A DNA stretch of 64,000 bases, from IMG/VR virus record IMGVR_UViG_3300023119_000004. The stretch is one strand, 5' to 3'. Made by a program: the position numbers and the translations under genes. The number at the start of each line of letters is the position of its first letter. The first letter of the stretch is position 1. Shown piece after piece: positions 12,585-56,668 of this stretch. The DNA comes from a virus. Its lineage: Duplodnaviria; Caudoviricetes. Below the pieces are notes generated by a model. The model searched no databases and was not told the origin of the DNA. It saw only the letters and a list, made by a program, of their open reading frames with translations.

Positions 12585-14219
12585 TTATCCTTTAGTGAAG
12601 CCACTTGAACTTGTATACTTAATTTTATCAGGTGAATTTAAAGGAAAATATACTACCTTATTTGTACCACCATATAACCGTGGTGTAGTATTTGCGTACA
12701 CATAATCATCTGGACCACCTGTGTCATATAATTCTTCTTGGGCTATATTTTGTAACCAGTCTTTAAATTGTTGAGCAGTTGCACCTGGATTTGCCTGCAT
12801 ATACAAACAACAAATTCCTGCAATTTGAGGAGCCGCCATGCTAGTTCCACTAATTCTTGCAATATAGTGTGCATTGCTTTCCGGGTGTGGTTGTTTTGTG
12901 CTATAAGTTGATTGTGTACCTGTGGCACTTGTAATTTGTGTACCAGCGGCATTAATATCTAATCTTTCGCCACGTTCACTTGATTCTGCTAACATTTCTT
13001 CACCGCCAAAATCTGTATTATCAATGTTGCCAACCCATACAGTATCTAATGAATGTGGTGAACTAGGTCTATTATAATATATAGGGTTACCTGCTACAAT
13101 GTAGCCGGCCCATGATTCATTAAGTGTGTAATAACTGTTATAACGTGTACTACCATATTGTCCTGAAGCCTGGCCAGCACAAGGATGATATCCATTACCT
13201 GCGGCTTTAATGCAAATAACACCAGCATCAGTTAATTGTTCTTGTTCAACATCTGCTGGAAGATATTCCATAGGGTGCCTTGAACCTGTACACCCATATT
13301 GTGCAAATGTTGCCGAACTAAATGTTTGTGGTGCTATGTTTTGGTTAACTCCTCTAAACCAAATAGTTTGAATATTTGGAGGAGTAAAAAAATCTCCGTT
13401 ATTGTAGTACCAACTGTAGCCCCAACTTTGATTTACTACTGTAGGACGTTTATAACCTGTTTTAGGATCTACTGGTTTTTGTTCGTGGAATAATCTTATT
13501 AGATCGTATCTATCAGTATCTATTCTATAACCAGTTCCGCCAAAAATTCTCATGCTGTATATAGTTGCGTTCTTTGCCCAGCCATACGTTTTACCTGCGG
13601 CAATACCACAACAATGGCTACCATGTGCGCCACCTGGGTTTGAGTCGTTGGAACCTGGCGAATAAAAGTTCGCAGGCATTGATCCTGCTAATCCGGTTAG
13701 TTCATACCAATCAACTTGTTGGAATCGTGTATTACCGTCTGCATCTTCCCATTCAGGATGTCCTGTTGGGTCAACACCGTCGTCTTGAATAATTAAATCA
13801 ACGCCAGTTCCGTCCAGTGTATATGTATAGTCTGCATTATTTGTTGTTGAAGTATCGTCAACAGCGCCTAGGGATTTTTGAATATGTCTCCATAATCCCC
13901 AGTTAACACTATTTTGTGCATTGTTAGTTGATCTTTGAAAATTTCCTGTTTGTGTTGCATAAAGTTCTTGTGTTTCGTCTAGTGGTCTAGTTGATACAGA
14001 TAAAATTCTTGGGTCTGTTGAAAGTGTTTGTGCTTCTTCGTCAGTCAAATTGTAGTGTGTCATTCTGTTGTTAAATTGACGAGCATTTACTACATCAACT
14101 GATCTATCAGGTATTGCATCTGAAACAGAATCGTCCATTGAAGTATCACGTTGTAGGTCTGCATCTAACTCTGCAACGTCAACACCTTTTACAGTTACTA
14201 CAATATATTCTTTTTCCAT
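12585..14219 (-). CDS. Subtilisin-like serine protease (S8) with prodomain
   Basis: IIQDDG (Asp), HGSHCCG (His), AAGN (oxyanion Asn), GTSMAAP (Ser). Confidence 0.9.
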   Translation of the reverse strand: MEKEYIVVTVKGVDVAELDADLQRDTSMDDSVSDAIPDRSVDVVNARQFNNRMTHYNLTDEEAQTLSTDPRILSVSTRPLDETQELYATQTGNFQRSTNNAQNSVNWGLWRHIQKSLGAVDDTSTTNNADYTYTLDGTGVDLIIQDDGVDPTGHPEWEDADGNTRFQQVDWYELTGLAGSMPANFYSPGSNDSNPGGAHGSHCCGIAAGKTYGWAKNATIYSMRIFGGTGYRIDTDRYDLIRLFHEQKPVDPKTGYKRPTVVNQSWGYSWYYNNGDFFTPPNIQTIWFRGVNQNIAPQTFSSATFAQYGCTGSRHPMEYLPADVEQEQLTDAGVICIKAAGNGYHPCAGQASGQYGSTRYNSYYTLNESWAGYIVAGNPIYYNRPSSPHSLDTVWVGNIDNTDFGGEEMLAESSERGERLDINAAGTQITSATGTQSTYSTKQPHPESNAHYIARISGTSMAAPQIAGICCLYMQANPGATAQQFKDWLQNIAQEELYDTGGPDDYVYANTTPRLYGGTNKVVYFPLNSPDKIKYTSSSGFTKG

Positions 14220-14227
14220 AATTTAAA

Positions 14228-15724
14228 TTAATCCTGTCTTAATGCTCTATGTCCTGCAAAAGGAAAATAAGCAATTCTATTCACACCGTTATATAAACTT
14301 CTTGTATTTGAGAAAAACGTAGACGCATTATTTTCGTCGGTATCACCTTGGAACATTAGGCCTTTAATACTACCTTGATTATGCCACCACTGTCTTGCTT
14401 GTGCTGGCGTCCACCCTGGGTTAAGTTGCATCAACAAACAAGTCATTCCACTAATTTGTGGTGTACTCATACTTGTTCCTGTATAGTTTGCTACGGCAGT
14501 CGGACTTGAATTATATGCACTAACAATATCAGTACCAGCAACCCACACATCAACCCTTGGACCTTTGTCGCTTGATGTTGCAGTTGCTTCTTCACCGTTA
14601 TATAATCCACTATCTAGATTACCACAAACAATAGTGTTTGGACCAATGTTGCCTGCACCTCTGTTATAGTAAATAGGACTTCCTGCTGTAATGCCGCCTG
14701 TTGTAATACTTCTAGTAATATAGTTGTTGTAATCGATGTCTCCAACGGAGCATAATTTTTGTCCTTGGTTACCTGCACTTTTTACATATATTACTCCAAC
14801 CTCTTCCATTTCTTCAACTTCAACATTTAGGTTATAAAGGTTAGCGTTAAATCTATTTGAAATATCTCCAATCATTCCATATTGTGATGATTTGACTGTG
14901 CCTACACTACTGCCTCTAAACACAATATCAGTTATGCTTGTAAAGTATGCTTTGTATCCCCAACTAGCACCAACTATGGTCGGACGCTTAACACCAGTAA
15001 TTGGGTCTGGTGTTTTTGCTTTGTGAAATTCTTTAATAGCATCAAACCAAGCACTTGAACTAATAGTGTTCATATCTAAGCAATAGATATTTGCATTCTT
15101 TGCCCAACCGTAATCTTTACCTACAGCCGTACCACAACAGTGGGTAGCATGATAACTTGATCCTGATATGTTGTCATAGTCCTGTGTTAACTCAGCACCC
15201 ATGTTTGGAAGTGTGTTCCATTGGAATCTTTGTAAACGACTATTACCGTCTTTATCTTCCCATTGTTCATGATCGTATCTAAATTTAGTTTCTTGGTGTA
15301 CATAATCAACACCAGTACCATCTAAATGGTAATCATAAGTTCCGCCAATATCACTAGTTACATTTGAGCCCCATGGATTGCTTTCATTTACGTGTCTAGT
15401 AAATGCCCAATTATCTCTAGTAGTGCTTGTACCATCTCTTTGGTTGTTTAATTCTTGTTGATAGTCTGCCCATTCATCGTCCCAAGTTAATGGTTCGTTT
15501 ACACCACCTACCCTTGGATCATTCATTAATGCTTCTGCTTCAGCATCAGATAATTCTACTTCAAAAATACGTTGACTTGACGGACGAGTATTTACATTAT
15601 CAACTTGTCTATCAGGAATAATATTACTATCAACCCAACTGTCGCTAGTTGTGTCTCTGTTTAGTTCGTCCATTATTTCTGATTTATCGTATCCTTTAAC
15701 TAAAGACACTACATAATGTTTCAT
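14228..15724 (-). CDS. Second S8 subtilase paralog with Glu at the catalytic Asp position
   Basis: DGTGVDYVHQETK, HATHCCG, SAGN, GTSMSTP; colinear with 12585..14219. Confidence 0.85.
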   Translation of the reverse strand: MKHYVVSLVKGYDKSEIMDELNRDTTSDSWVDSNIIPDRQVDNVNTRPSSQRIFEVELSDAEAEALMNDPRVGGVNEPLTWDDEWADYQQELNNQRDGTSTTRDNWAFTRHVNESNPWGSNVTSDIGGTYDYHLDGTGVDYVHQETKFRYDHEQWEDKDGNSRLQRFQWNTLPNMGAELTQDYDNISGSSYHATHCCGTAVGKDYGWAKNANIYCLDMNTISSSAWFDAIKEFHKAKTPDPITGVKRPTIVGASWGYKAYFTSITDIVFRGSSVGTVKSSQYGMIGDISNRFNANLYNLNVEVEEMEEVGVIYVKSAGNQGQKLCSVGDIDYNNYITRSITTGGITAGSPIYYNRGAGNIGPNTIVCGNLDSGLYNGEEATATSSDKGPRVDVWVAGTDIVSAYNSSPTAVANYTGTSMSTPQISGMTCLLMQLNPGWTPAQARQWWHNQGSIKGLMFQGDTDENNASTFFSNTRSLYNGVNRIAYFPFAGHRALRQD

Positions 15725-18273: not shown

Positions 18274-19122
18274 TTATACTGCATTTGCAATTTCTCTCCA
18301 AGCACCATTTAAGTAAACTACCATAGTTTGAACACCATTAGTCATTGGATCCCAACCACTGCCGTCTGCTATTGCTACCATACCGTCTGCTGGTGATGTC
18401 GGAGCCGATGTTAGTACAGATAGTTTTGCTAATCCAGTTATGGAAACACCATATGATACAGTATCTAATTTAACATTATTTTGATAACGTAATTCTACAC
18501 CTTGACCAACAAGAAATCTTGCAAGTGTTCCACCACTTGTTCCATCAATAACAAAAGAATCTGGTGTTCTAACATATATAAATCCTCGTGAGTTCTGTAA
18601 TCTTGCATTTGCTCCGTCATGATAAAAATCTAAGTCACTATCCGTTCCTAAAAACAAATGATCGCTATCTTGAAATATAATGTCATTTCCATTGGTATCT
18701 AAGTTTCCACCAAGTTGTGGGGTTGTGTCTGAACTTAATTCTACAGTTGTTAAATAATCAGTCCCTGCAACCGCCTGTGAAATATTACCAGCACCGTCTG
18801 CTTTTACTAATCCGTTAATAGCACCTACAACTGGATCTGTTTCTACAACACTAATACCTGTTAGTGCTGAACCATCTATTGCAGGTAAAGCACCTGATAA
18901 GTTTGCCGCTGGAATCTTAGCATTGATAGCATCTACAAGTAGTGTACTATCTTCTGCAAAAACATTTCCGCTAACATCTGTTGCAACGTGTCCATCTTCA
19001 AGTGCTGTAAGTTTTGTATAAACTTCTGTAAAGTTAGTGTTTACTTTATTAAAGGCAACTCTAATTGGATCGCCATCACCCTTATTTGCACTTGACCCAA
19101 TGTTTATAGTTAGTTGTGCCAT
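18274..19122 (-). CDS. Structural protein with gp9/gp10-like N-terminus
   Basis: QLTINIGSSANKGDGDPIRVAFNKVNTNF; DTTPQLGGNLD motif. Confidence 0.7.
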   Translation of the reverse strand: MAQLTINIGSSANKGDGDPIRVAFNKVNTNFTEVYTKLTALEDGHVATDVSGNVFAEDSTLLVDAINAKIPAANLSGALPAIDGSALTGISVVETDPVVGAINGLVKADGAGNISQAVAGTDYLTTVELSSDTTPQLGGNLDTNGNDIIFQDSDHLFLGTDSDLDFYHDGANARLQNSRGFIYVRTPDSFVIDGTSGGTLARFLVGQGVELRYQNNVKLDTVSYGVSITGLAKLSVLTSAPTSPADGMVAIADGSGWDPMTNGVQTMVVYLNGAWREIANAV

Positions 19123-22100
19123 TATACTCTCCCTACCACTGCTTCAATTACGCCATGTCCGGGATCGTCTTTGGCTTCTAGTGCTTTACCAATTACAGTA
19201 CCTACCTTAGCATTATTGTTTGCTATTGCAAATCCTGGAATACTTGCTGAAACTAACAAGTCTCCTTTCTTAACAATACCAACAACCTTAACTGGAGTAC
19301 GTCCTTGTAAAGCAACCGCTGTAACATGATTACCTTCTAACTGGCTGTTCATTAAGTGTGCAGGATTTTCTGAAACAACGCCTGCTACCCTTGTGTCGTC
19401 TTTCATCTTAGTAGTTGTAATTTCTTCTTCACCACCAAATATTAATACAGTACCTACTTCGTAATCTGCATCTGCTAGATAGTTCTCAGCCAAGTCAGCG
19501 TATCTTGCTTGTGTTGATGTTCCATCATAAACACCTGCGTAAAGTGTATTGTATCTTAATGAAGCAGTACCAATATTGTATGTGTTATTCTGACTTGGTT
19601 CAAATCCTGATGTTGTAGTTCTAAGAACCATTTCACCATCGGAAATTAATCCAATTTGTCCTGCGGCAGTATAACCTGTATTAGCACCAACTGATATACC
19701 TGTACTTGTTGCATCAAGTTCTCCTGGTGCTTCAATAAATGAACTGTGTATCCAATCTACAGCAAGTCTACTTTCACCTGCTAGTGCAGAGTTAGTTTGG
19801 AAGAATCCTTGTGTAACACCTGTGTTACCAATATTAACGCTTCCTGGAATTTCAACTGTTGGTGTAACTGTACCTGCTGATGAAAGGAATAATGCACCAC
19901 CAGGTGTAGTAAATTGAATTTCAGTACCACTAGTATCTGCAATCAAGTAACCATCAATCTTAAGTCCTTGCATATCAGCATTACCTAAGTTGTCAGTTTT
20001 AATTAATGAATTAATTGCACCAGTTGTTGTAACATTCTCTTGTACACCGCCACCTTCGTTAACGATTGTAGTAAATGGAATTTCTGTAACATCACCTGAA
20101 CTTGAATCACCACTTGCTCTACCTAGTGCAGTACCATCAGCAATATTAATAATTTTTCTGTAGTCTAATGCACCATTGTCAATAGTAATCCAGCCATTAT
20201 CTGCTGTAAAGATATCACTATCGAAACTAGCAACACCTAGGTCATTTTGTGTAATGCCTGTTGCGTTTGCTCTTGTACTTGCATTGTTAAGAGCAAGTTT
20301 AGTTTGTTGAATACCTGCGGCAGAATTAACGTCTGCATCAATAATACTGTCTGGTGCAATTCTGTATTCTACAGTTGCTCCATTAGCATCTCTCGATACT
20401 ACAATGTTAATATCACTTGCGGCATCTTCAACTAAGTTTGCCCATTCAAAGTGTGGACCGTCTTCCATCTGTGCCGAAACACCGCCGGTTGTTGTAATAA
20501 TATCTTGAGTATTAAATGTTCCACTTGCAGGAGTGTAAACTAACAAGTTGTAATTAACACCACCTACTGTAACATTTTCTACTGTAAGAATTGTACCAGT
20601 AGCATTTGTAAAGTTACCTGTAATAACATCGCCTGCTTGGAAGTTACCACCAATTGCTGGTTGTGTGTAAATTCTATATTTGCCTGTTGAACCAATTAAC
20701 TGATCAACATCTAAGTTGTTAAATTCAGTATCAACTAGTTCGCCAATTGTATCACCTTCTTTAATTAATCCATCAACATAAGATTTAGTTGCGGCATCCT
20801 GAGCACCTTGTGGATCACTTAGTGATTCAATTCTGTATCCACCAGCATTCAAGTTACCTGTCATTGATGTAGTACCATCACGTGCTAGTACACCTGGACC
20901 AATAATATTTGGATTTATATTTCCACCGTGGTCAAATCCTAAACGTCTAGTAACATAACCACGCACCGCTGATTCAACTGGAACTGTATCAGTTGAGTTG
21001 TCAGTCATGCCGTCATCGGCACTAAATTCTGCTACAACAACACCACGTTTAAATCCAATACCGTCCAAGTTACTTAATGCAATTGAAGCACTAAATGTAA
21101 CTGTACCAGTACCTTGGTCAACTGTAAAGAATCTACCTACGCGGAAGAAACCATCTTGGTCAGTTGATACGTAGAAACATCTACCTTTATCTCTTTCATC
21201 AACTTCTCTGTCTTGGTCTTTAGGTTGTGTTGCTTCACCTAGTACAACGTTCGGGAAGTTAGAAGTATTATAACCACCAGTACCAATATTTAGGAAGTCG
21301 TGTCCTGTTGCTCTACATAGTGAAATGTTAACAGTAATGTTACCACCTTCACCTGCGGCTAAACCTGCTCTTAGTGTTACGTTATTAGTTGCATTAACAA
21401 CAGTACTGTTTAGACCTGTACCAGCATAACTAGCATTAACGTTTGTACCAGCAACATCAGTAATTTGAATAGTACCATAACCAACACGTTGAGTATAATT
21501 TGTAATTTGATGTAGTTTACCATCCCAGGCAAAAATCATATCACCTGCGTTCAATCTATCAAGCACAGGTTGTGATAAGATACTAACAACAGCAATAACA
21601 ACGTCACCCTGTGTAGCACCCATTGTTGTTCCTACGCCTGCATAGGTATTAGTTGCGGCATTAGTATTATCAACAACTAGTTTAATGTATTCATATGGCG
21701 AATCAAATCTAGTAATCTTTTCTGTTCCTGGTAATGCATTACCTAACGCATCTGTTGTTCCAAATGATAATGTTCTATAAACTTTACCTGGGTTTTGGTC
21801 AAATATCAATGCTGAACTTGGTCTTGAACTTACTGACTCAACACCATCAATATGATGCGACAAGTTCATTCTAATCATACCAATTGAACCATCTACTGGA
21901 ACTGCTTTAAGTCCTGTTGTACTTGTACTATCTGTACCAGTTGTAGCAAGGTTTAATCTATAAACTGTGCCGTCAATGTATGCACTAGATTCAATCTGTC
22001 CTGTGTTTTGTACAGTTGTAATTTCGTAACGTGTTGTTCCTAATTGTCCACCATGGTCAATTTCAACTTCTGAGTTTGCTAGTGGTACAAATGGCAATTC

Positions 22101-25100
22101 GTACACATACATATAAAGTTGATCAAGAGCGTGTGTATAATCAGCACCGTCATCGTAAATTCTGATAGGACGTACCATGTCATGTTTAGTAGTAATAATG
22201 TCTGGTACTTCGTTTGGATCAGAGCCAGTTGCAACTAAACCGTATTCACCATATGCGTTAGAACCGTTTAGTGATCTAATTTCACCACCTTTGTCTGCGT
22301 AGTAAGCCGCTTGACAGTAGTAAGTAAATTGTGATACAAGTTCTGATAAACCAGTGTTAGTAACAACAGTACCGTAACCTAAGTCGTTAACCTGTGTAAA
22401 GTCGTTTGCCAACATTGATCTATTACCTGGTGTTTGTAATACAATGTGTGTTGGTAGTGGTTCACTAAATCCTGCACCACTGTTTGATGTTGGATCAAGT
22501 AATAGTGTAGCAGTACCTGCCTGCTGATCGTAATTTGTAAATGAGTTAACTTGGTAACGTTTACCTTGAATATAGAACGGACAAGGAACGTTTGGTTTCT
22601 TAATTCGTAAGCCTTCGCCTAATGCACTCTGTACGTTAATGCTGTATGCATTGTTAATGCCAGTTACAACAGTTCTCAAGTTACCAACGAAACCGTCGAT
22701 AAACATACCACCAGCAAACGTTTGTTTGTTTACTGATTTACTAAACGATGTACCAGTTTGCATATAAGGTGATTTAGTAAGCACAATACCTTCTGGATCT
22801 AGTACTGCCATAAATCCACCGTGTCCAGTAACACTCATATTTCTTAAGATAGTTGTGTCGTTCATTAAGAACACATCCATCTCATCGTTGTTCTTAGGTG
22901 GATTATAATCACTATCAAATGCGTATAATATTGATGTAATAAAGTTACTTACGATTGTTTGTACTGCTGTCGAAGATGCAATAACATTAGTATTGATGTA
23001 AGTTGCAATGTGTTGCATACCAGAACGACAGTCTGCGTCAATACCTGTTTGATTCCAGAACTTGCCTTGCATAGTAAGAACATTTTCTCTACCACCTTTG
23101 CGTAAGTCTGCAACAATAGCATCAACAATGTACCCTGTATCTCTTCTGCTCTTTGTTTCTTCAGTACCTGTTAGAACTCCAAGTGCATTAATGTGTGTAA
23201 CAACAGCGTCTTGGATATCTGATTTTGCTTCTGCAATAGCACTTGCTTCTGTATTATATCCGCCAGCATTAGTATATGAAGGACCAATGTCTGTTACAGA
23301 AGTATGATCTCTTAAGTAATGATAACCATAACTAGTTGAATCGAGTGCAGGTAAAACAGATAGACCATTTTGAATAACATTACTAATGATACCCATTAAT
23401 GTATCTACTTGTGTAGACGCCGCCGCTTCGCCGTTTGTACCAGAAATTGTTTGTGTAGTTTTAGACTGTAAAGATCCGTATGCAGTATTTGTTAAAATAT
23501 AATCTGTTACTAAATCTCTTGTAAAGTCAATTGCCGCCGCAGTTTGCCCTTCTTGTCCATTAATTAAACTTGAAGTACCTTCATAATAGCGTGAAGCATT
23601 AAAATGTGTCTTTTCATTTCCACCCCATTTTAGATCATAAATGATACCATCTAAAATAAGTCCTGTATCTCTTTCACATTTCTGTGCATCGTACGTAAAC
23701 CCTGACCAAATTCCTGTGTTTAAAGATATTTGGTAATTAATCCAAGCAATAGTTTCGTCTTTAATATATTCTTTATTATCTTCTAATAGTGAAATAGCAT
23801 CTGGATTGTAAGATGCTTTTAAATCCAATCCGTCAAACTCGGGCTCTCTATAGAAGTATGTTTCTGCCCAACGTGACTGTGAAACACCATCTTTTGGTTT
23901 AACAATAACACGTCTAAATTCGTCACCTTTTAGTGAAACACCTACTGGAACTTTAATTGGGAAGTGTTCAAAGTAAGTTCCACTTTCAATGTGGATACTA
24001 ATATTCTTAATTGTTAATCTACTGCCATATTGTAATTCTTCACCAACAACAAATTCTTTTGGTTCTAATAATTCAAGTTCAATAATATCAGCAACACCAA
24101 CATCACCGTCTCTGTCAACAGACACAATTCTACCAACTGCACCTGACTGCTTACCAATAATAAGTTTACCTGGAATTAAGTCTTGGTTTGTAACAACGTT
24201 TTGATCAACATAACCTTGTCCGCCATGTGAAATGTGTATTGTCCAAGTACTACCTTCAACAAGTTGTGGAGCCGCTGTTTTATAATCAGGACCAACAATA
24301 ATAGTTTTAATAATATCCCATTTAGCACCAACTGATGTTTGACCAACTAGATCGACAGTTTGGTTAGTGTCAACTTGTTGTGTATATGTAGATTGGTAAA
24401 GATTTGTTTCTAGTGTATTAGTAATAATTTTTGCGTGTAACTGTTTTGCAAAGTTAAGAGAAGCAATAGTTTCTGTTAACTGAGTTCTTCTTGCAATTTG
24501 ACCACTTGCTGAACTGTAGTATCTTAAACCAGCATTTCTACTGTGGTAGTTTGCAAGTGTGCTATCAAGAACATCAAGAACAATACCATCTGCAATAAGT
24601 CCTAGGTCTCTGCGGCATAGTTCTCTATCATATAACAACGATGGATATGTTTCATCGAGATATGCAATAGTTTCTTCAATTAAGAATTTTCTGTTTAGGT
24701 CTGTTAGAATTTTAACTTCTTCGTAACCGCTTGATGTAGTAACACCCGAATCTGTAACAAGACTTTTTCCTGCACCATTATTGTATGTAATGTCTTGTAC
24801 ATATGGTCCAACGCCCAATGGTGAAGTATCAATAATTTCTTCTGCTTTAGCACAGGCCGCCGCCAGTGTTTTGTAAGCATAGTTCCATGCTCTACCTTCT
24901 TGACCAACTGGAACATTAGCCATGCTGTCGTCACCACTTGTTGCAACATATAAATTAGCAACGGATGGAAACGCACTATTGTCTACATAAAGTTTTGTAG
25001 CCGCTTGTAAATCTGTTTCACCATTTGGTGTACCTGCACCTGCAAATGAACCTGGATGATCATGTAATGTTAATGCACCAACCATTGTGTCGCCTTGTCT

Positions 25101-25994
25101 ACGAACAACACTTTGTCTTGGCATTGCTTCTGTACTAATAAAGAAGCCTTGTAAACTTGAATCATACTCGGCATCAGTCATTGACTGCGTACCAGTACCT
25201 GTTCCTGTAGTTAAACTAATTTTAACTCTAGTTTCGTCGTCGTTATTTTGTGCTTCATCAAGAGTTGTATGAACACTTAATTGTGTGTCACTTACAAAGC
25301 GTAAGTAATATGTATTACCACTAACTAAACCAGTTGCATCAGTTCCTGTTGAATTATACTTGTATGCAATACCATTTGATGTAGAAGTAAATCCGTGTCC
25401 ACCATTAACAACAATATTACCATTTGCGTAACTGCTAATTACAAAAGTATAACTTGAAGCATCGGCAGGCTCTGTACGTACACGAACTTGTCCTTCAGCA
25501 CCTGGTGACCCAGCACTTCTTAAAAATCTACTATCTGCATACCCTTTGGTAATTACAAGATCATCAATATCAAAGTTAGTACCATGTGCAGAGTTTAACG
25601 AGTTTACAGCGGCTTGTGAAACTGCCGCGTTAGCAATAGCCTGGTTTGCCGCATTTAGAGGACCACCTAAACTTGGAACACCGTCTGTACTAACAACTGA
25701 ACTTGTATTTGAAATAACAATCTGTTCTGGACTTGTTGTTTGGATTGTCATACCTTGGCCAGCAACCAAAGTCTTCATTTCAATTGCACTACCTTGTGCG
25801 TTTGCCATTGGTACTGTATATGGTGTTAATACTGACGGAACATCACTTAAACTTGTAAAGTTAATTTGTCCACCGATACCAAATACTGCGTATAGTTCTG
25901 TAAAGTTTTCGTTTACTTTATTAAACGCTTCACGTATCGCGTCACCGGTATTATCGTTACCCTCTGTACCAATGTTAATAATCTGTTTTGCCAT
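19122..25994 (-). CDS. 2290-aa virion structural / tail protein (VrlC-like)
   Basis: gp9/gp10-like N-terminus; repeated CxRDxGxIxDxIxxD helical units; DAATKSYVD motifs; C-terminal RYADLAENY...GTVIGKALE domain. Confidence 0.75.
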   Translation of the reverse strand: MAKQIINIGTEGNDNTGDAIREAFNKVNENFTELYAVFGIGGQINFTSLSDVPSVLTPYTVPMANAQGSAIEMKTLVAGQGMTIQTTSPEQIVISNTSSVVSTDGVPSLGGPLNAANQAIANAAVSQAAVNSLNSAHGTNFDIDDLVITKGYADSRFLRSAGSPGAEGQVRVRTEPADASSYTFVISSYANGNIVVNGGHGFTSTSNGIAYKYNSTGTDATGLVSGNTYYLRFVSDTQLSVHTTLDEAQNNDDETRVKISLTTGTGTGTQSMTDAEYDSSLQGFFISTEAMPRQSVVRRQGDTMVGALTLHDHPGSFAGAGTPNGETDLQAATKLYVDNSAFPSVANLYVATSGDDSMANVPVGQEGRAWNYAYKTLAAACAKAEEIIDTSPLGVGPYVQDITYNNGAGKSLVTDSGVTTSSGYEEVKILTDLNRKFLIEETIAYLDETYPSLLYDRELCRRDLGLIADGIVLDVLDSTLANYHSRNAGLRYYSSASGQIARRTQLTETIASLNFAKQLHAKIITNTLETNLYQSTYTQQVDTNQTVDLVGQTSVGAKWDIIKTIIVGPDYKTAAPQLVEGSTWTIHISHGGQGYVDQNVVTNQDLIPGKLIIGKQSGAVGRIVSVDRDGDVGVADIIELELLEPKEFVVGEELQYGSRLTIKNISIHIESGTYFEHFPIKVPVGVSLKGDEFRRVIVKPKDGVSQSRWAETYFYREPEFDGLDLKASYNPDAISLLEDNKEYIKDETIAWINYQISLNTGIWSGFTYDAQKCERDTGLILDGIIYDLKWGGNEKTHFNASRYYEGTSSLINGQEGQTAAAIDFTRDLVTDYILTNTAYGSLQSKTTQTISGTNGEAAASTQVDTLMGIISNVIQNGLSVLPALDSTSYGYHYLRDHTSVTDIGPSYTNAGGYNTEASAIAEAKSDIQDAVVTHINALGVLTGTEETKSRRDTGYIVDAIVADLRKGGRENVLTMQGKFWNQTGIDADCRSGMQHIATYINTNVIASSTAVQTIVSNFITSILYAFDSDYNPPKNNDEMDVFLMNDTTILRNMSVTGHGGFMAVLDPEGIVLTKSPYMQTGTSFSKSVNKQTFAGGMFIDGFVGNLRTVVTGINNAYSINVQSALGEGLRIKKPNVPCPFYIQGKRYQVNSFTNYDQQAGTATLLLDPTSNSGAGFSEPLPTHIVLQTPGNRSMLANDFTQVNDLGYGTVVTNTGLSELVSQFTYYCQAAYYADKGGEIRSLNGSNAYGEYGLVATGSDPNEVPDIITTKHDMVRPIRIYDDGADYTHALDQLYMYVYELPFVPLANSEVEIDHGGQLGTTRYEITTVQNTGQIESSAYIDGTVYRLNLATTGTDSTSTTGLKAVPVDGSIGMIRMNLSHHIDGVESVSSRPSSALIFDQNPGKVYRTLSFGTTDALGNALPGTEKITRFDSPYEYIKLVVDNTNAATNTYAGVGTTMGATQGDVVIAVVSILSQPVLDRLNAGDMIFAWDGKLHQITNYTQRVGYGTIQITDVAGTNVNASYAGTGLNSTVVNATNNVTLRAGLAAGEGGNITVNISLCRATGHDFLNIGTGGYNTSNFPNVVLGEATQPKDQDREVDERDKGRCFYVSTDQDGFFRVGRFFTVDQGTGTVTFSASIALSNLDGIGFKRGVVVAEFSADDGMTDNSTDTVPVESAVRGYVTRRLGFDHGGNINPNIIGPGVLARDGTTSMTGNLNAGGYRIESLSDPQGAQDAATKSYVDGLIKEGDTIGELVDTEFNNLDVDQLIGSTGKYRIYTQPAIGGNFQAGDVITGNFTNATGTILTVENVTVGGVNYNLLVYTPASGTFNTQDIITTTGGVSAQMEDGPHFEWANLVEDAASDINIVVSRDANGATVEYRIAPDSIIDADVNSAAGIQQTKLALNNASTRANATGITQNDLGVASFDSDIFTADNGWITIDNGALDYRKIINIADGTALGRASGDSSSGDVTEIPFTTIVNEGGGVQENVTTTGAINSLIKTDNLGNADMQGLKIDGYLIADTSGTEIQFTTPGGALFLSSAGTVTPTVEIPGSVNIGNTGVTQGFFQTNSALAGESRLAVDWIHSSFIEAPGELDATSTGISVGANTGYTAAGQIGLISDGEMVLRTTTSGFEPSQNNTYNIGTASLRYNTLYAGVYDGTSTQARYADLAENYLADADYEVGTVLIFGGEEEITTTKMKDDTRVAGVVSENPAHLMNSQLEGNHVTAVALQGRTPVKVVGIVKKGDLLVSASIPGFAIANNNAKVGTVIGKALEAKDDPGHGVIEAVVGRV

Positions 25995-26910: not shown

Positions 26911-27930
26911 TTAGATAGATTCGTACAATTTAATGCTGGCTAAGTTTTTGGCTTTAGATTCTACCATAATATCTGCACGATCACGGAATGAAAGAGCCCA
27001 TTCGTTAACTGCCGAATTCCACATAAAGTCGGAGTGAGCACGTAGTTTCTGCTTCTTATAACCGTTCATAAGCAGATATTCCATATCAGGCATTTCATCT
27101 GTAGGCCATTCTGTAAGTAGATCTTCACGTGATACTGAGTAGTGAATAACAGGACGCACACCACGCCAACTATCAATTATGCGATCAAATCTACGATCGG
27201 TGGGTTGAATGTATTCTCCACTAGCGACCCAGTGGTGGTGTATGTCAAGAACGAGTGCGACGTGGTTGGCAAGTTCCAGGCTGGCGTCGATGCCCCAGGA
27301 CATTTCGTCATTTTCAATTGTAATACAGTTTCGTGCTTCTGGAGACAGTCTTGGAAGGACGTCGATGATACCGGCTGGACCTTGTCTGCCTGAGATGTGG
27401 ACGTTACACTTGAAGTCTTGCCAATTGTTACCGTAACCCATCCACCTGGCGATGTCAATGTGATACTCAAATTCTTCTATGCTCCGTTCAACGATATCAG
27501 GATTATCTGACGCAAGTACAGTAAACTGACCAGGATGCATAGAAAGCCTAACATCCAGTTCACGAGCCTTTGCGCCGACGTGAGCCAAGTTCCTTTCACA
27601 ATATTGTCGTACATCAGGCTTGCGCCAGAAATAACTCCAAGTAGGCTCAGTATAAACAGGTAGGACGTCACTTCCCAACCTAACCATACGTAATTCATTC
27701 GGTAGTCCTCCTACATAGTTAACAAGGTTCCAATAACTTTGTATGTTATGAACCATAATGTCCCATAGACGCTGTTCAGCAACATCACGTGTTTGCCTAT
27801 TCAACCAAGCAACAGTTGTTGCTTTTGTATTTAACGGTCGTTGAATCTCCTCTAGCAGTTTCTTCTTCTGCGTTTGATCAGGATGCATATATTTGCAGGC
27901 AAAGCCTATACGTTTCGTAGTCGATTCCAT
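26911..27930 (-). CDS. uvsE: UV damage endonuclease UvsE/UVDE
   Basis: RIGFAC, RLSMHPGQFTVL, TIENDE, LDIHHH, HYS, LRAHSD, MVESKAK. Confidence 0.93.
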   Translation of the reverse strand: MESTTKRIGFACKYMHPDQTQKKKLLEEIQRPLNTKATTVAWLNRQTRDVAEQRLWDIMVHNIQSYWNLVNYVGGLPNELRMVRLGSDVLPVYTEPTWSYFWRKPDVRQYCERNLAHVGAKARELDVRLSMHPGQFTVLASDNPDIVERSIEEFEYHIDIARWMGYGNNWQDFKCNVHISGRQGPAGIIDVLPRLSPEARNCITIENDEMSWGIDASLELANHVALVLDIHHHWVASGEYIQPTDRRFDRIIDSWRGVRPVIHYSVSREDLLTEWPTDEMPDMEYLLMNGYKKQKLRAHSDFMWNSAVNEWALSFRDRADIMVESKAKNLASIKLYESI

Positions 27931-28607
27931 GTGTCTTCCCAGTTTTTAATATTATAGCAAATTCCTAGATCGTTGTCAATGATTTGTTTTTTCAAAGGAT
28001 AGTCATTTCCTTCAGGATACATAGCATCACCAAAAAAGTGTAGTGTATCATTTGGACTAAAATCTCTTAAGATTTGTGATTTGTCATTGCCTTTTGGAAA
28101 AACATCAATGCCTGTTTCACCGCCAACCTTAGCACTTATCTCTGGGAACATAGTTTCGAACGCTCTTGCTATTCTATCTCGTTCGTTTATCCTTAAATCA
28201 TGCTCTACATATAGTTTACGTTCACCCACAGTAGCATTACGTCCTACTACACTAAAATTACACATACCAGGTCTATGCTCAAAGTGTAGTCCTGTACGTA
28301 GTGGGAATTCGCTTTCGTTCATGCATTGTGTTAAAAACTGTTCTGCTATTTCAGGTAATTTCCAATCTGTTGTATAAACATTAGTTCCTGCTTCGTAAAC
28401 ATCACTGCCTGAACAGTTGTAAACTTTTTTAACATTTTCGCAAATGTCAGAACCAATTTGTTCAACAGTTTTTTCGTAATCACTGCCTGTTACAAGATAT
28501 ACATTATTTGAATATGTAAATTCTAAAAACCAACGTTGAAACTCAACGTTCATTTTTTGACGACTCGGAGTCAGAGTACCGTCCACGTCAAATATGAATC
28601 TTTCCAT
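27906..28607 (-). CDS. HAD-superfamily phosphomannomutase (eukaryotic PMM type)
   Basis: FDVDGTLTPSR, TGSD, NFSVVGRNA, GGETGIDVFP, FFGD...GND. Confidence 0.85.
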   Translation of the reverse strand: MERFIFDVDGTLTPSRQKMNVEFQRWFLEFTYSNNVYLVTGSDYEKTVEQIGSDICENVKKVYNCSGSDVYEAGTNVYTTDWKLPEIAEQFLTQCMNESEFPLRTGLHFEHRPGMCNFSVVGRNATVGERKLYVEHDLRINERDRIARAFETMFPEISAKVGGETGIDVFPKGNDKSQILRDFSPNDTLHFFGDAMYPEGNDYPLKKQIIDNDLGICYNIKNWEDTWNRLRNV

Positions 28608-29455: not shown

Positions 29456-30157
29456 CTATTTCCAATTTTCTTTGCACCAAGGATCAATGCAATCTTTTGG
29501 ATTCGGATCACCATGAAAAACTGCAACACTTGTTTCGGGTAGAATTTTTGGTACGCCAGGAGAGACAAAGTTGCGTTTACCTGTAATACGTGTCATTTCG
29601 GGTCTGCCACGCATTTCCCATTTATAACTTTGTATCCATTCGTCAGGCCAAAAGTTAAATTCTGAACGAACATTTTCATATAGCCAATCTTGATCTCCAT
29701 GATATCTTTTTGAATGATATCCAGGCTGTTCCATAAACCTTTGATATACAACCTTGTGTTGTCCTGTTTCTAATCTAAATATACTAGAGTTCATTCGAGA
29801 CCATGTCGATTGCATTGATCTATTAAAATCTCTAATAACACAGAACTCACCTGCCTTATATGTAAACAGTTTATCTATGTTATCAAAGATAATAACATCT
29901 AGATCAATATAAAGTACTGTACCATGTATTCCTAAATTAGGATTAAAGAACATAGTCTTGTACCACCAACCATTAATTTCAGGATGCTTTTGAATAGGCA
30001 TAACTTGTATGCCCGGGTTAATTCCTGTAGCATCTTCTGTAAAGCAGACAAAGGTATGAGGTACTGTTAGATTACGACTAACCATACTATGCAAAGTGTT
30101 TACATACTCAGCACTATATTTGTTACCGTATTTTAAGCAAACAACATAGTTAGCCAC
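29456..30157 (-). CDS. Glycosyltransferase-like protein (GT-A, DxD)
   Basis: CLKYGNKY, GWWYK, YIDLDVII, NSS, GDQDW, FHGDPNP. Confidence 0.75.
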   Translation of the reverse strand: MANYVVCLKYGNKYSAEYVNTLHSMVSRNLTVPHTFVCFTEDATGINPGIQVMPIQKHPEINGWWYKTMFFNPNLGIHGTVLYIDLDVIIFDNIDKLFTYKAGEFCVIRDFNRSMQSTWSRMNSSIFRLETGQHKVVYQRFMEQPGYHSKRYHGDQDWLYENVRSEFNFWPDEWIQSYKWEMRGRPEMTRITGKRNFVSPGVPKILPETSVAVFHGDPNPKDCIDPWCKENWK

Positions 30158-30167
30158 TGTGCCCTCC

Positions 30168-30719
30168 TTACATTGATGTATTTACTGGACCGTATGATTT
30201 AGTATTCATTGCTTTCATAGGATTAGCACCCAAACTTAACGTTACCCTTGGACCTATAATCATAGGTTTGTGATTTGTTAGTCTTGGTAATAAAATTGCA
30301 TCACCCGGATTTAGTGTGTAGATTGTTTTTTCTTGAGTATCTTTATCAGTTACTAAGTAAGCAACCTGTCCGTATCCTTGAATTAGTAATACAGTTTCAT
30401 AGTCATTATGAAGCATTAAACTATTGTGTGTGTCACTCATGCTGTAAAATAAACTAGCATTGAAGTGAGTTTCAGTTTCGTGTCGATCATAGTTTGATTG
30501 GAAGTCAAGCATATACTTTTGCAATCTCTTATCAGATCCAACATCGGGCAAGTGCGATCCGCCTCTTGCTAATTCATCGACATTAGTAATTGTTGCTTTG
30601 TATTGATTTACTTCTACAAGAGTTTCAAAATTAATATCGTTTTTTGCATCGGGAAAAGCATTACGATAAACAGCAACGTTTAGATTTTTACGATCTTCGT
30701 TTACTTGACTCCAATCCAT
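30168..30719 (-). CDS. Cupin/JmjC-like oxygenase
   Basis: HND...LIQGYG...LNPGDAILLP...H; start moved to ATG 30719 (GAGG RBS) to avoid the queD overlap. Confidence 0.65.
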   Translation of the reverse strand: MDWSQVNEDRKNLNVAVYRNAFPDAKNDINFETLVEVNQYKATITNVDELARGGSHLPDVGSDKRLQKYMLDFQSNYDRHETETHFNASLFYSMSDTHNSLMLHNDYETVLLIQGYGQVAYLVTDKDTQEKTIYTLNPGDAILLPRLTNHKPMIIGPRVTLSLGANPMKAMNTKSYGPVNTSM

Positions 30720-30720
30720 C

Positions 30721-31170
30721 TTACGCCTCGTAGATTGCAGAGTTAGCACCGTGTTCTGCACATTCTACCTTAACGCAATAACAACGATTATCTGTCTTTT
30801 CTCTAATTAGTTTGTCTGCAAAATTAAATGCGTGTTCTGCAAACTTCTCTGCACCAACACCATCAAATATTCTTAGTTCTGCTAGACCCAGTGCTTCTAG
30901 TTTTTGTAATTCTTCTAAAAATGGATCTGCTCGATCTACTGCTACCTTGTGATCAAAACTATCTTCTAGCCAAGCCTTTAGTGGTTTTAGTCCTCCAAAG
31001 TCTACTGCCCAGTTTTTGTTATCTAGTTCATCACAACCAAATGTGAATGTAAATGCTAGACTGTAACCGTGTAGTAGATGGCAATGTGAATGATCTGCGT
31101 TTGGTTGTCTAAAGACTGCCGATAGGCCAATATTATGACCATAATGTTTTGTACTGTAATGTTTACCCAT
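30721..31170 (-). CDS. queD: QueD / 6-pyruvoyl-tetrahydropterin synthase family protein
   Basis: HCHLLHGY, VDFGGLK, FDHK, EKFAE motifs. Confidence 0.88.
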   Translation of the reverse strand: MGKHYSTKHYGHNIGLSAVFRQPNADHSHCHLLHGYSLAFTFTFGCDELDNKNWAVDFGGLKPLKAWLEDSFDHKVAVDRADPFLEELQKLEALGLAELRIFDGVGAEKFAEHAFNFADKLIREKTDNRCYCVKVECAEHGANSAIYEA

Positions 31171-31236
31171 TATTAACTCCTATATATAATGGCGGCAGAA
31201 TTAGAAGGGGTGACGCCAAGTCCTATATTAAACATA
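31171..31236 (-). ncRNA. Candidate structured 5' leader (possible H-type pseudoknot) of queD
   Basis: UAGGA/UUCUA stem with loop UGGCG complementary to downstream CGCCA, between a sigma70 promoter and the queD RBS. Confidence 0.35.
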
Positions 31237-31242
31237 TTGTAT

Positions 31243-31271
31243 AGTATATACAATTTATTTGCTTTTGTCAA
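31243..31271 (-). promoter_or_regulatory. Sigma70-type promoter TTGACA-17-TATACT
   Basis: Hexamers upstream of the queD leader. Confidence 0.8.
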
Positions 31272-31866
31272 GTCTTTTGTGGTACGTATTAAAACTTATA
31301 GTTACTCGTTTTGTAGTTGTGTTTGGTGTTGAATAGTGATACAACCAACTAGGAAACAGTATTAACAGTTCGCTTCTAGGTTGAAACTCCATATTATTAG
31401 TTGTATAATACGTAGCCTTGTTGTGTATTTCAGCCATTTTAGGTCCAAGTATAGGACTTTCAAATACTAGTGGCGCACTACCTTCTTCAACAATTGGATA
31501 ATATGCTCCGCTAATAATTGATAACTCGTGCCTGTGTTTGTTGATTACACCTTGTTCCTCTTGTATGTTAAGCCAACTCTTTCCAAGTTCTACAATGTCA
31601 AGACCTGCATCTTCACAATACTCGTCAAGACAATCCTGAATGCCTGTTCTTACTTTTGTTAATTCTTTCGAATGTAGAAAGTTCATTTCATGTTGGCTAG
31701 AAGTTTTACCATTGCCAATATCATCAGGCCATACAGTTAGGTCTTTGTAGTTGTTTAGATATTCTTTTTCTTCAGTGCCAAAAGGAACTTGGTACACCTG
31801 TACTAGTGTAGGAAAGATATCATATGTTGCTTTTCTAAACGTTCCGTCAACTATCGACGCTCTCAT
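31255..31866 (-). CDS. 2OG-Fe(II) oxygenase (TIGR02466-like)
   Basis: KSWLN, HRH, ISGAYY, LFPSWLYH, RVTISFN. Confidence 0.82.
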   Translation of the reverse strand: MRASIVDGTFRKATYDIFPTLVQVYQVPFGTEEKEYLNNYKDLTVWPDDIGNGKTSSQHEMNFLHSKELTKVRTGIQDCLDEYCEDAGLDIVELGKSWLNIQEEQGVINKHRHELSIISGAYYPIVEEGSAPLVFESPILGPKMAEIHNKATYYTTNNMEFQPRSELLILFPSWLYHYSTPNTTTKRVTISFNTYHKRLDKSK

Positions 31867-41697: not shown

Positions 41698-41774
41698 TGG
41701 CGCACTCGAAGAGATTCGAACTCCTGGCCTCCAGTTCCGCAAACTGGCGTTCTATCCAACTGAACTACGAGTGC
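41698..41774 (-). tRNA. tRNA-Arg, anticodon GCG, CCA encoded
   Basis: GCACTCG/CGAGTGC acceptor, D-loop GGA (A20), CCAGT-TTGCGGA-ACTGG anticodon arm, TTCGAAT T-loop, G73, 77 nt. Confidence 0.93.
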
Positions 41775-44521: not shown

Positions 44522-44595
44522 TGGTGCCCAGTGACAGAATCGAACTGCCAATAGATGATTACAAATCAACTGTTATACCATTTAACTAACCGGGC
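44522..44595 (-). tRNA. tRNA-Thr, anticodon UGU, CCA encoded
   Basis: GCCCGGT/ACTGGGC acceptor, TTTGTAA anticodon loop, GGCAG-TTCGATT-CTGTC T-arm. Confidence 0.88.
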
Positions 44596-51076: not shown

Positions 51077-51772
51077 TTATGCTATTTTTGGAAATAATGC
51101 GTTAGTGCAGAATTCGTCAACATCTGCTTCATTAAGTCCTAATGACTTCATAACTCTAGGTGTATGTGGATTTTGTTGCTGGTTATGGCAGTAGTAGTTT
51201 TGAGCACCTGCTGTAATATCTACACTAGCATTGCCTGTATACTCAGGAACACTATCAAACCATACACGCAGGTTTTCTAAAGCAAGATCTACAATAGCAG
51301 TTGCTTCTTCTTCTGTGCGAACATTACCTGCGGCAACCATTCCTGGTGAAAAGATGTTCTGTGCCCATTCGGGTAGTTCACGTTGTTTACTAGGAATAAA
51401 ATCTTTAACAGCATCTAAGTACCATTCTACAAGAGGATGTTCTTCACCGCCTGAACTTGCTGAAAAATCATGAAATGCACCTGTCATTTTATTCTTACCT
51501 GCAATAACATCAAAGCCGTAAATAGGACCATCATTTGATAACACAGGAAAACAACATACGTGCATCATCCACAGTCCGTGCGAGTCTCTTGCGTCTACAA
51601 CATCAATGTGTGCTCTGCGTACATGATCATTTGCCCATACTCTGTTGATCCAACCGTTCTCAGGCTGATTAAATTTGTTTAATCCTTTTTCTTCTATTTC
51701 AGTGGCTTTCTCATCAAAGATGTTTAATATTTCATTTTGGCATTCAATTAGTTTATCCCAAATGACACTCAT
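51077..51772 (-). CDS. pcyX: Ferredoxin-dependent bilin reductase, PcyX type
   Basis: NRVW, RRAHID, LWMMHVC.FP, GFDVIAG, AFHDFS, YCHNQQQNPHT; start at ATG 51772 gives an ATGA overlap with the halogenase stop. Confidence 0.88.
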   Translation of the reverse strand: MSVIWDKLIECQNEILNIFDEKATEIEEKGLNKFNQPENGWINRVWANDHVRRAHIDVVDARDSHGLWMMHVCCFPVLSNDGPIYGFDVIAGKNKMTGAFHDFSASSGGEEHPLVEWYLDAVKDFIPSKQRELPEWAQNIFSPGMVAAGNVRTEEEATAIVDLALENLRVWFDSVPEYTGNASVDITAGAQNYYCHNQQQNPHTPRVMKSLGLNEADVDEFCTNALFPKIA

Positions 51773-53289
51773 GATCTGTTTCCCCAATCTCTATTATACA
51801 TACCAGGTGTTGTCCAATCAACATCGTCTTTGTTCATCTTTTCTAAAAGTTCCATGGCTTTGTCTTTTTCTAATCCTGGTGATGCTGTTTTAATTCCTGT
51901 TGTGTTAAGCCATAGTTTCCAATTCATCTCAGCAAAGATTTCTGTATTACGGGGGAAAAACTGATAGTCATCGTCCCACATAACTGTAGGTGTATAGTTA
52001 TGTTTAAAGTTTGTTGCAATCTCTGTAAGTTTATCTGTTTCCTTAAAGTTTTTATAAACGTGTTCCCAAAACTTACCTTTACGTGGATTATTAAAATAAT
52101 GTAGTGCTACAAAGTTCATAGTATCTTCATAGACTGCTGTCATATCTTCGTTAAACTTTAATCTATCTTCTTCAGTATAACTTAGTTTTTCTAAAACTTT
52201 TAGGCCACTAGCACCAATTGTAAGTAATGCAAGTCCTGTTGATTCTAACGGTTCAATAAATCCACTAGCAAGTCCTACACTAAAACAGTTGCCTCTCCAG
52301 TTGTTTGCATTATATTCTGGCTTGAAAGGAACATGATTAAACTGTCCTGTTCTTAGTCTGTGTTCACCCCAATGCTGTACAAAGAAATCTTCTGCTTCTT
52401 GTTTAGTGGTAAGTTCACTGTTGTAACATAGTCCACTACCAATACGATCTTTAACAGGTGTTTTCCAAATCCAACCTAGGTCACACGCCTGTGCAGTAAC
52501 GTATGGAAGTTGTACTTCATCTTCTGTTTCGTAATCTATTTGACTTGCTACTGCGGCATTAGTAAACAGCATATGACTTCTGTCAATCCATTTACTGTCG
52601 GGCAATGCATTTGAAAGTAAACGTTTAAAGCCAGTACAGTCTACAAAAAAATCTGCTGTAACTTTTGTACCGTCATCTAATGTTACATATTCAATAACAC
52701 CATCAGTAACCTTTGGAGCATCAATGTGTTTTTGAATATGTGTTAGTCTTGGATACTTCTTATTAAGATAATCAGATAAGAAGTTTGCTAGTTTAACAGC
52801 ATCTAAATGATATCCTACATGAGCAGTACCACCGCAAGGTGTTGTGTTATTTGGAATCTTTTTATCTACAACAGAAACTTTATGCCAAGCAATATATTTT
52901 TCTAATTCAACCTCATTAATGCCGCCGTCACGAGCAAGGTCAATGCTATCAAGTGTTCCGTGTTCTGTATGTGTTACAGGAAAAAAGAATGGTTGCCAAA
53001 TGTTAATGCCGTCGCCCTTCCAGTTTGGAAAGTAAGTCCCTGTTTTAATAGTTGCGTCACAAGCCTTTGTCCATAGTTCTCTAGGAATATTACAATCGTC
53101 TAAAAAATGATCAAACCCTAAAATAGTTGCTTCACCTACGCCAACAATAGGAACATTAGGACTTTCAATAAGTGTGATTTGTGTTTCGGGTAAGTTTGAT
53201 AATGCATAAGCGGCCGTAAGCCAACCAGCACTTCCTCCACCTACAATACAAATGGACCTAGCACGGCTACGACCTACTACTTCAGTCAT
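51769..53289 (-). CDS. Flavin-dependent halogenase (PrnA/tryptophan halogenase family)
   Basis: GGGSAGW, VGVGEAT, ATIKTG (catalytic Lys), GWIWKTP, GFIEPLESTG. Confidence 0.9.
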   Translation of the reverse strand: MTEVVGRSRARSICIVGGGSAGWLTAAYALSNLPETQITLIESPNVPIVGVGEATILGFDHFLDDCNIPRELWTKACDATIKTGTYFPNWKGDGINIWQPFFFPVTHTEHGTLDSIDLARDGGINEVELEKYIAWHKVSVVDKKIPNNTTPCGGTAHVGYHLDAVKLANFLSDYLNKKYPRLTHIQKHIDAPKVTDGVIEYVTLDDGTKVTADFFVDCTGFKRLLSNALPDSKWIDRSHMLFTNAAVASQIDYETEDEVQLPYVTAQACDLGWIWKTPVKDRIGSGLCYNSELTTKQEAEDFFVQHWGEHRLRTGQFNHVPFKPEYNANNWRGNCFSVGLASGFIEPLESTGLALLTIGASGLKVLEKLSYTEEDRLKFNEDMTAVYEDTMNFVALHYFNNPRKGKFWEHVYKNFKETDKLTEIATNFKHNYTPTVMWDDDYQFFPRNTEIFAEMNWKLWLNTTGIKTASPGLEKDKAMELLEKMNKDDVDWTTPGMYNRDWGNRS

Positions 53290-54643: not shown

Positions 54644-54713
54644 TTGTTTTCTCCTTATTAAGCAAGTTGTTTGTCATGTAAGACCTATCAAGCATCTTAC
54701 AATCTTATTTATC
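54644..54713 (-). promoter_or_regulatory. hsp20 leader: late promoter GATAAATA, covarying hairpin, ROSE-like SD-occluding hairpin
   Basis: UGUAAGA-UGCUUGAUAGG-UCUUACA then CUUGCUU-AAU-AAGGAG; same architecture as the dnaK leader. Confidence 0.7.
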
Positions 54714-56597: not shown

Positions 56598-56668
56598 TTT
56601 TTTCTCCTTATTAAGCAAGTTTTAATTACAAAACCTATTCAGCATTTTGTAACATATAAGTATTTATC
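56598..56668 (-). promoter_or_regulatory. dnaK leader: late promoter GATAAATA, covarying hairpin, ROSE-like SD-occluding hairpin
   Basis: UUACAAAA-UGCUGAAUAGG-UUUUGUAA then CUUGCUU-AAU-AAGGAG. Confidence 0.7.

Follow-up and report, generated by a model that had tools for sequence, protein, structure and literature searches.

What is the role of a short, GC-rich leader that separates a dedicated promoter from a queD gene in a phage genome? This question was raised by a locus in the 64,000-nt stretch of phage DNA analysed here (the window, which always means the stretch as a whole). An initial annotation of the locus had pointed out a pseudoknot-like structure in this leader and had considered it as a candidate riboswitch.

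The queD locus and its promoter

The leader region is on the minus strand. Reading from 31320 to 31140, we observed a promoter, a leader of ~67 nt, a GGAG sequence and the ATG of queD, in this order (Table 1). The dedicated TTGACA-17-TATACT promoter that had been described before queD is present on this strand and matches 11 of the 12 consensus positions. The stop codon of the upstream 2OG-Fe(II) oxygenase gene is at 31257-31255, and from the position of the promoter the queD transcript is predicted to start near 31236-31237. The leader sequence had been quoted exactly, and the pseudoknot core is GC-rich as claimed (49%, versus 37% for the whole window).

Table 1. Positions of the features of the queD leader region in the window, in the order of transcription
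Feature	Position	Strand	Remarks
-35 hexamer TTGACA	31266..31271	(-)	Within the final codons of the upstream 2OG-Fe(II) oxygenase ORF
Inverted repeat TTGTATA-TAC-TATACAA, perfect	31237..31253	(-)	Overlaps the -10 of the queD promoter
-10 hexamer TATACT	31243..31248	(-)	17 nt from the -35
P1, 5′ strand, AGG	31222..31224	(-)	Alignment by family model R2
Loop L1, ACU	31219..31221	(-)	In the family, first base variable, CU nearly invariant
P2, 5′ strand, UGGCG	31214..31218	(-)	Pairs with CGCCA, 31190..31194
Loop L2, UCACC	31209..31213	(-)	C31209 is the conserved cytosine immediately 5′ of the P1 3′ strand
P1, 3′ strand, CCU	31206..31208	(-)	Relatives and model R2
Loop L3, UCUAAUUCUGC	31195..31205	(-)	Ends in the family-conserved UCUGC; 4 nt longer in the long variant
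P2, 3′ strand, CGCCA	31190..31194	(-)	Covariation in relatives
Start-masking helix, 5′ strand, CCAUUAU	31186..31192	(-)	C31192, C31191 and A31190 common to P2
Shine-Dalgarno (SD), GGAG	31177..31180	(-)	Sits in the loop of the start-masking helix
Start-masking helix, 3′ strand, AUAAUGG	31167..31173	(-)	Includes the AUG, 31170-31168
QueD/PTPS-like gene, 149 aa	30721..31170	(-)	Pfam PF01242; phrog_2389 'QueD-like', E 2e-39

The inverted repeat may serve as an operator or form a 5′-terminal hairpin of the transcript, and comparable palindromes flank the -10 in some of the relatives. A sigma-70-type promoter was found in 68 of 79 distinct upstream contexts of the compact variant of the motif (the variant present in the window), the -10 ending 5–19 nt before P1. 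Many leaders of the long variant (e.g. L103, L112, L136, L140 and L147) have apparent TATAAATA-like T4 late-promoter motifs, and not sigma-70-type ones. If these late promoters are real, one aptamer would serve different temporal classes of genes.

The window DNA occurs in salt-marsh metagenomes of 2018. The locus is also present in salt-marsh metatranscriptome runs as assembled contigs, which carry no information on transcription or its strand, 5′ end or level, and the patchy contig cover over the leader in these runs carries no evidential weight. A contig from one RNA library (run X19) tracks the window as far as the motif's 5′ edge at 31226, beyond which the two sequences differ; the contig appears to come from a related strain that has queD and the motif in common and a different promoter region.

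A covarying pseudoknot in the leaders of related phages

The core of the leader in the window (31187-31226) is an H-type pseudoknot ahead of the QueD/PTPS-like gene. Its P2 helix has 5 bp (U31218 to G31214 with C31194 to A31190; -5.3 kcal/mol as an isolated helix), and only three P1 pairs are secure in the window's compact variant (A31224, G31223 and G31222 with C31208, C31207 and U31206). P2 is separated from the GGAG by 9 nt. In a nested single-sequence fold, the stability of the window leader was not above that of shuffled sequences (z +1.47), and hence the support for the structure comes from the relatives and not from thermodynamics.

It had been proposed that the upstream regions of homologous phage queD genes be compared. 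We searched IMG/VR with the window QueD protein, obtained more than 595 relatives and used the best 80 (86–99% identity). A conserved, covarying motif was recognisable between the promoter and the SD in 73 of these 80 loci. Among the seven exceptions, one locus is cut inside the motif and six lack it, being either operonic junctions or, as in L027, a case where the promoter is placed directly before the SD. This protein-derived set of loci is unbiased, and the anchored parses used below impose part of the consensus.

In the family consensus, P1 is NNNGG/CCNNN, and L1 is N-C-U followed by a variable stretch. The 5′ strand of P2 varies freely and its 3′ strand matches it, over a length of 3–7 bp. 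L2 is U-C-(A/G)-N-C, nearly invariant, and the A/U-rich L3 terminates in U-C-(U/C)-G-C, again nearly invariant. Thus, in the aligned relatives the loops are nearly invariant while the stems vary. The anchored parse yielded GGCG/CGCC, GGCAU/AUGCC, GACGC/GUGUC, AUGC/GCAU, GACUU/AAGUC, AUGGCAU/AUGUCAU, GGUG/CACC, AACG/CGUU and other versions of P2. The frequent G-U pairs in P2 indicate that the transcribed strand is the queD strand.

Next, we quantified the covariation in two alignments. In the 16 ungapped examples (A3), P1 was paired in 100% of the cases with four of its five pairs changed on both sides, and P2 in 85% with all five pairs so changed. Over both the helices, 9 of the 10 pairs were doubly changed, and the covariation score was 0.77, compared with 0.22 for shuffled alignments (0/500 reach it). 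The second alignment (A4) had 67 distinct sequences and was made with a model that was given P1 only. Here P1 was 98% paired with 4/5 pairs covarying, all five P2 pairs covaried, and the overall pairing was 87.9% (covariation 0.53 versus 0.16 shuffled, 0/500). Sliding the 3′ partners by 1–3 columns reduced the pairing from 88% to 35–54%. The closing pair of P1 was G-C in all the 67 sequences. At the level of sequence comparison, this analysis demonstrates the pseudoknot of the queD leader and its conservation, and the covariation in the helices excludes a chance origin.

These alignments also bear on the fold as it had been drawn originally. The H-type topology and the UGGCG/CGCCA pairing of P2 were right. 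The P1 register, UAGGA/UUCUA, was not: it can be drawn (+0.2 kcal/mol), but positions 31221 and 31225 vary without compensation, and the relatives support AGG/CCU instead.

The first family model (R1) was made from the long variant only. It gave the copy in the window a score of 4.6 bits and thus overlooked it, owing to the 4-nt deletion in L3 and the shorter L1. With the rebuilt model (R2), this copy reached 29.4 bits (E 1e-8), and no other real match was present in the 64 kb. Another match in the window, at 2581-2617 on the plus strand (R2, 14.1 bits), is without the conserved L2 core and is probably due to chance.

Distribution of the motif and its association with queD

The exact compact consensus was present in at least 117 IMG/VR contigs. 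We also scanned IMG/VR DNA with a pattern that is blind to genes and filtered the output with the model, which left 38 confirmed matches. Thirty-six of them sit immediately before a QueD homologue, and many of these proteins are only 33–50% identical to that of the window; the longer variant was found ahead of QueD proteins with just this degree of identity. The predicted pseudoknot is kept, with compensating changes, before queD in hundreds of uncultured phages.

The two remaining matches were a doubtful one and a degenerate copy before a methyltransferase-like ORF. The latter copy (L105:8-54) precedes an ORF of 309 aa and is directly upstream of a normal motif followed by queD. Another contig has two identical copies (L066:634-679 and L066:1431-1476). 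The first is ahead of an ORF of 236 aa that matches nothing in Pfam or PHROG, the second is ahead of queD, and a radical-SAM fragment is located upstream. This double copy suggests that the regulon may sometimes include a second gene. We also examined five large contigs of related phages, including one of 356 kb that is 96% complete; each of these contigs has exactly one real copy, before queD. A second, weak model match in one of them (G005, 71863-71896) was spurious, being antisense inside an ORF and without the core.

We ran a strict pattern for the long variant over 185,579 prokaryote genomes, one per species. Among the ten matches four were real, all on short contigs of metagenome-assembled genomes (MAGs) in Bacteroidota-type bins. 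In the two with enough downstream sequence a QueD homologue follows, and the other two are cut just past the start codon. These four copies are probably mis-binned phage DNA. The pattern matches in Idiomarina (L208) and Flavobacterium (L210) had no P1 pairing and no gene after them.

Using blastn, we found no match to the region, the window leader or the long-variant leader in 50,697 GenBank phage records. Similarly, Synechococcus phage BUCT-ZZ01 and Achromobacter phage Motura, the nearest relatives in culture, have no copy of the motif at their queD loci, even when these were searched with filters off. Therefore, as far as the genomes searched can tell, the element appears to be essentially restricted to phages, and so far to uncultured ones. 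Our literature search for phage queD, preQ1 or 7-deazaguanine riboswitches, whose coverage was incomplete, found no description of this motif.

The QueD protein, its pathway and the gene neighbourhood

The QueD-like protein of the window matches the QueD equivalog TIGR03367 weakly. Its nearest cultured relatives (52–55% identical) are the QueD proteins of phages with 7-deazaguanine gene clusters, and the HSHC..HGY motif is common to them. Genes for FolE and for a radical-SAM protein resembling QueE (phrog_2076) are present in the related large contigs. In G001 (135000-146000, locus L204), G002, G004 and G005, folE adjoins the phrog_2076 gene in a cluster far from queD, and in G001 a gene of the HIT family lies near this cluster. 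Pfam searches of these large contigs detected no QueC and no TGT/DpdA; a weak 'QueC' match in one of them was an NAD synthase. A pathway with FolE, QueD and QueE but without QueC would end with CDG. In the 78-kb record that contains the window, which is only ~21% complete, we detected neither FolE nor QueC.

Just upstream of queD are tandem paralogues of 2OG-Fe(II) oxygenases (PF13759; 31255-31866 and 31847-32497, both on the minus strand). Downstream of it are a JmjC/cupin-like ORF (30168-30761), a glycosyltransferase gene (29456-30157; phrog_1962) and a phosphomannomutase-like ORF (27906-28607). Glycosyltransferase or sugar-modifying genes follow queD also in the relatives L066, L105 and L205.

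Elsewhere in the window, we noted a full-length DnaK/Hsp70 gene (54705-56618, minus strand; ~65% identical to proteobacterial DnaK by tblastn) and a tryptophan halogenase-like gene (51769-53289, minus strand; phrog_2928, E 4e-99). Tryptophan halogenase is an auxiliary gene of marine T4-like phages. Two tRNA genes are present at 41701-41774 and 44525-44595, both on the minus strand (Rfam RF00005, 67.8 and 61.3 bits). Two adjacent paralogous ORFs (12585-14219 and 14228-15724, minus strand) match phrog_9158 and, more weakly, proteases; this pair adjoins baseplate and tail-fibre genes and an ORF of 2290 aa (19122-25994).

The 3′ strand of P2 can alternatively mask the start of translation

The initial annotation had not noticed that the 3′ strand of P2 (P2b), together with the bases that follow it, can pair with the start-codon region. 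In the window, C31192 to U31186 can pair with A31173 to G31167. This start-masking helix has 7 bp and a stability of -5.0 kcal/mol, so that it is nearly isoenergetic with P2. As C31192, C31191 and A31190 belong to both the helices, P2 and the masking helix cannot coexist, and without these three bases only four A-U pairs of the masking helix remain. When the bases of the aptamer were blocked in the computed fold, the unpaired probability of three of the four SD bases increased from ~0.6 to 0.97. Regardless of the state of the aptamer, the AUG of the window can also be paired in a hairpin within the coding sequence, which is weak (-2.7 kcal/mol).

In the nested folds of 101 distinct leaders, we observed that the 3′ strand of P2 and the next bases recurrently pair with the start-codon region. 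In one lake-type lineage this strand pairs with the SD instead (CCUAUG/CAUAGG). We then compared the duplexes that 'P2b + 7 nt' can form with the stretch from the SD to AUG+8. The best alternative duplex included at least two P2b bases in 94% of the 101 leaders, and its mean stability was -8.5 kcal/mol, compared with -5.9 for partners exchanged between lineages and -4.3 for a shuffled strand. For the 66 distinct platforms of the compact variant the mean was -8.03, against -6.29 +/- 0.21 for swapped partners (0/500 swaps reach it). In this variant the sequence of P2b does not change, but covariation is seen between the bases that follow it and those immediately before the AUG, as in CAUAU/AUAUG, CAUUAU/AUAAUG, CAUUAUUA/UAAUAAUG and CCCAUAA/UUAUGGG. 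In the CGUU and GCAUCAAACUU sub-lineages, the pairing of P2b with the start region is only weak, and these must use other masking pairings.

As the 3′ strand of P2 is common to the pseudoknot and to a covarying helix that masks the start codon or the SD, folding of the knot should unmask initiation, which points to an ON switch. The motif is modular: it stands behind sigma-70-type or, apparently, TATAAATA late-type promoters, and the expression platforms joined to it differ in masking either the AUG or the SD. A conserved structure in the 5′ leader of a metabolic gene, variable platforms and mutually exclusive pairings are features of riboswitches in general, and the queD leader has all of them.

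A proposed model of the switch and its possible effector

We consider it probable that the queD leader is a cis-acting translational switch built on the ~40-nt H-type pseudoknot. According to this model, an effector, most probably a small metabolite bound at the P1/P2 junction, would stabilise the pseudoknot, which would leave the AUG and the SD free for the translation of QueD (ON). When the pseudoknot is not stabilised, the masking helix would form and block initiation. Ligand binding, the identity of the ligand and the direction of the switching are putative components of the model.

The near-equal stabilities of the two folds in the window raise the question of whether any effector is involved, since temperature or kinetics could decide between folds that are nearly isoenergetic. 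The leader might then function without a ligand, as a stabiliser of the 5′ end, an enhancer or standby site for translation, or a thermosensor or kinetic timer with a fold governed only by temperature or transcription. The location of the motif within ~10–20 nt of the predicted 5′ end would suit such a function. However, invariant loop bases and an exclusive association with a single enzyme gene in many phage lineages are not required for a stabiliser or a thermometer, and close relatives of the L027 type have lost the motif and kept the promoter and the SD, as expected for an optional regulator. We regard this possibility as quite improbable.

A protein effector has to be weighed more seriously, and is still an unlikely one in our judgement. 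The pseudoknot would then be a translational operator, where QueD or another phage or host protein shifts the equilibrium between P2 and the masking helix in the manner of T4 gene 32. Autogenous control through a leader pseudoknot is an established mechanism in T4, and the phage of the window looks T4-like, with PHROGs for a baseplate wedge connector and tail fibres; moreover, some of the relatives have the apparent TATAAATA late-type promoters. The conservation, the covariation and the alternative helix suit a protein effector equally well. On the other hand, the element resembles small metabolite aptamers in its length of only ~40 nt and in the near-invariance of the single-stranded loops at its helix junction, and the motif has been kept even though QueD has diverged to 33–50% identity. 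To our knowledge, T-fold enzymes such as the QueD-like proteins have no RNA-binding role.

We infer a metabolite as the stabiliser of the pseudoknot because the element is tiny, its junction loops are nearly invariant, its promoters and platforms are modular, and it is tied exclusively to one enzyme gene. Candidate ligands may be compounds of the pathway that present a guanine-like face, namely dihydroneopterin triphosphate (H2NTP) or GTP, CPH4, CDG, preQ0 and preQ1. It is tempting to speculate that the conserved C reflects a ligand with a guanine-like face, and that the ON logic reflects the sensing of a demand signal or of a precursor such as H2NTP or GTP, and not of an end product. As a counterpoint, an ON switch on a biosynthetic gene would be unusual unless its ligand is such a precursor or demand signal.

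The comparative evidence suggests that the queD leader is most likely a new, phage-restricted riboswitch candidate. The more specific proposal is that it represents a new, phage-confined class, whose aptamer is preQ1-I-like but distinct, senses a GTP-derived metabolite of the pterin/7-deazaguanine pathway and turns on the translation of QueD; the odds of this whole proposal are, in our estimate, about even. We know of very few phage riboswitches, all of them copies of cellular classes. If the proposal holds, this would be a widespread and apparently phage-restricted class with its own consensus and ON logic, and jumbo and T4-like phages could use it to time their own modified-base or pterin pathway. 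The switch would add a layer of regulation to the 7-deazaguanine/pterin metabolism of phages, which is linked to the modification of DNA and to escape from restriction. It would also offer a natural ON switch of ~40 nt for RNA engineering.

Comparison with known RNA systems

We scanned the whole window against Rfam 15 with cmscan at the gathering score, and the region 30900-31500 together with 20 diverse relatives at E ≤ 10, and obtained no riboswitch match. This bears out the earlier impression that the leader belongs neither to preQ1-I nor to ZTP. Chance matches were obtained to Spd-sr07, which was due to the inverted repeat at the -10, and to a miRNA family.

The T4 gene 32 leader also has an H-type pseudoknot near the 5′ end of the mRNA of a T4-like phage, which governs the translation of the downstream gene. 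There is no sequence likeness between the two. Gene 32 relies on a single-strand-binding protein that spreads along an unstructured leader, whereas the queD element has a strand common to the knot and the masking helix, and its gene product is a T-fold enzyme.

The ZTP (pfl motif) and THF riboswitches regulate folate- and pterin-related genes as well, and ZTP, which acts as an ON switch, relies on a pseudoknot whose pairing is rich in G/C. However, the queD element has no Rfam match to these classes and differs from them in size, architecture and conserved bases. The SAM-II/SAM-V, guanidine-III and fluoride riboswitches are likewise aptamers of ~40–50 nt, in which the ligand is placed at or along a pseudoknot with loop–helix triples. 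The queD element does not match their models and has other conserved loops, and most of these riboswitches sequester the SD upon binding.

The closest resemblance to be considered is with preQ1-I (RF00522; types I–III, e.g. those of B. subtilis queC, T. tengcongensis and E. coli). Both are small H-type pseudoknots in the 5′ leader of a gene of the queuosine/7-deazaguanine pathway. In both, P1 has ≤5 bp with a conserved G-C as its closing pair, the 3′ strand of P1 is immediately preceded by a conserved C (C31209 in the window), and L3 begins A/U-rich and crosses P1. In preQ1-I, this cytosine (the specificity base) and the closing G-C pair contact the ligand (PMC11625349).

These shared features, along with the position upstream of a queuosine-pathway gene, would be expected if the element were a divergent true member of preQ1-I that senses preQ1 and represses queD. 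We find this very hard to reconcile with the other properties of the element. Neither the window nor the 20 diverse relatives matched RF00522 or any other preQ1-class model at E ≤ 10. The first base of L1 is a conserved U in preQ1-I, whereas it is A, U or C in the queD element. The adenine-rich L3 of preQ1-I has a last A that contacts the ligand; here L3 is longer and terminates in UC(U/C)GC, without an A-run. L2 is UC(A/G)NC, and P2 is longer (3–7 bp) and free to vary. In preQ1-I the SD is within P2 or abuts it, so that binding represses, whereas in the queD element it is outside the knot, 8–25 nt downstream, and P2b competes with the helix that masks the start codon or the SD. The opposite polarity, ON and not OFF, is predicted from this wiring. 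The two also differ in that the queD element has been found almost only in uncultured phages.

Judged by sequence and predicted fold, the queD element would therefore work like a preQ1-I-type pseudoknot and is not a member of that class. If this is true, a comparison of the two would be instructive about how tiny pseudoknots shift their specificity and polarity.
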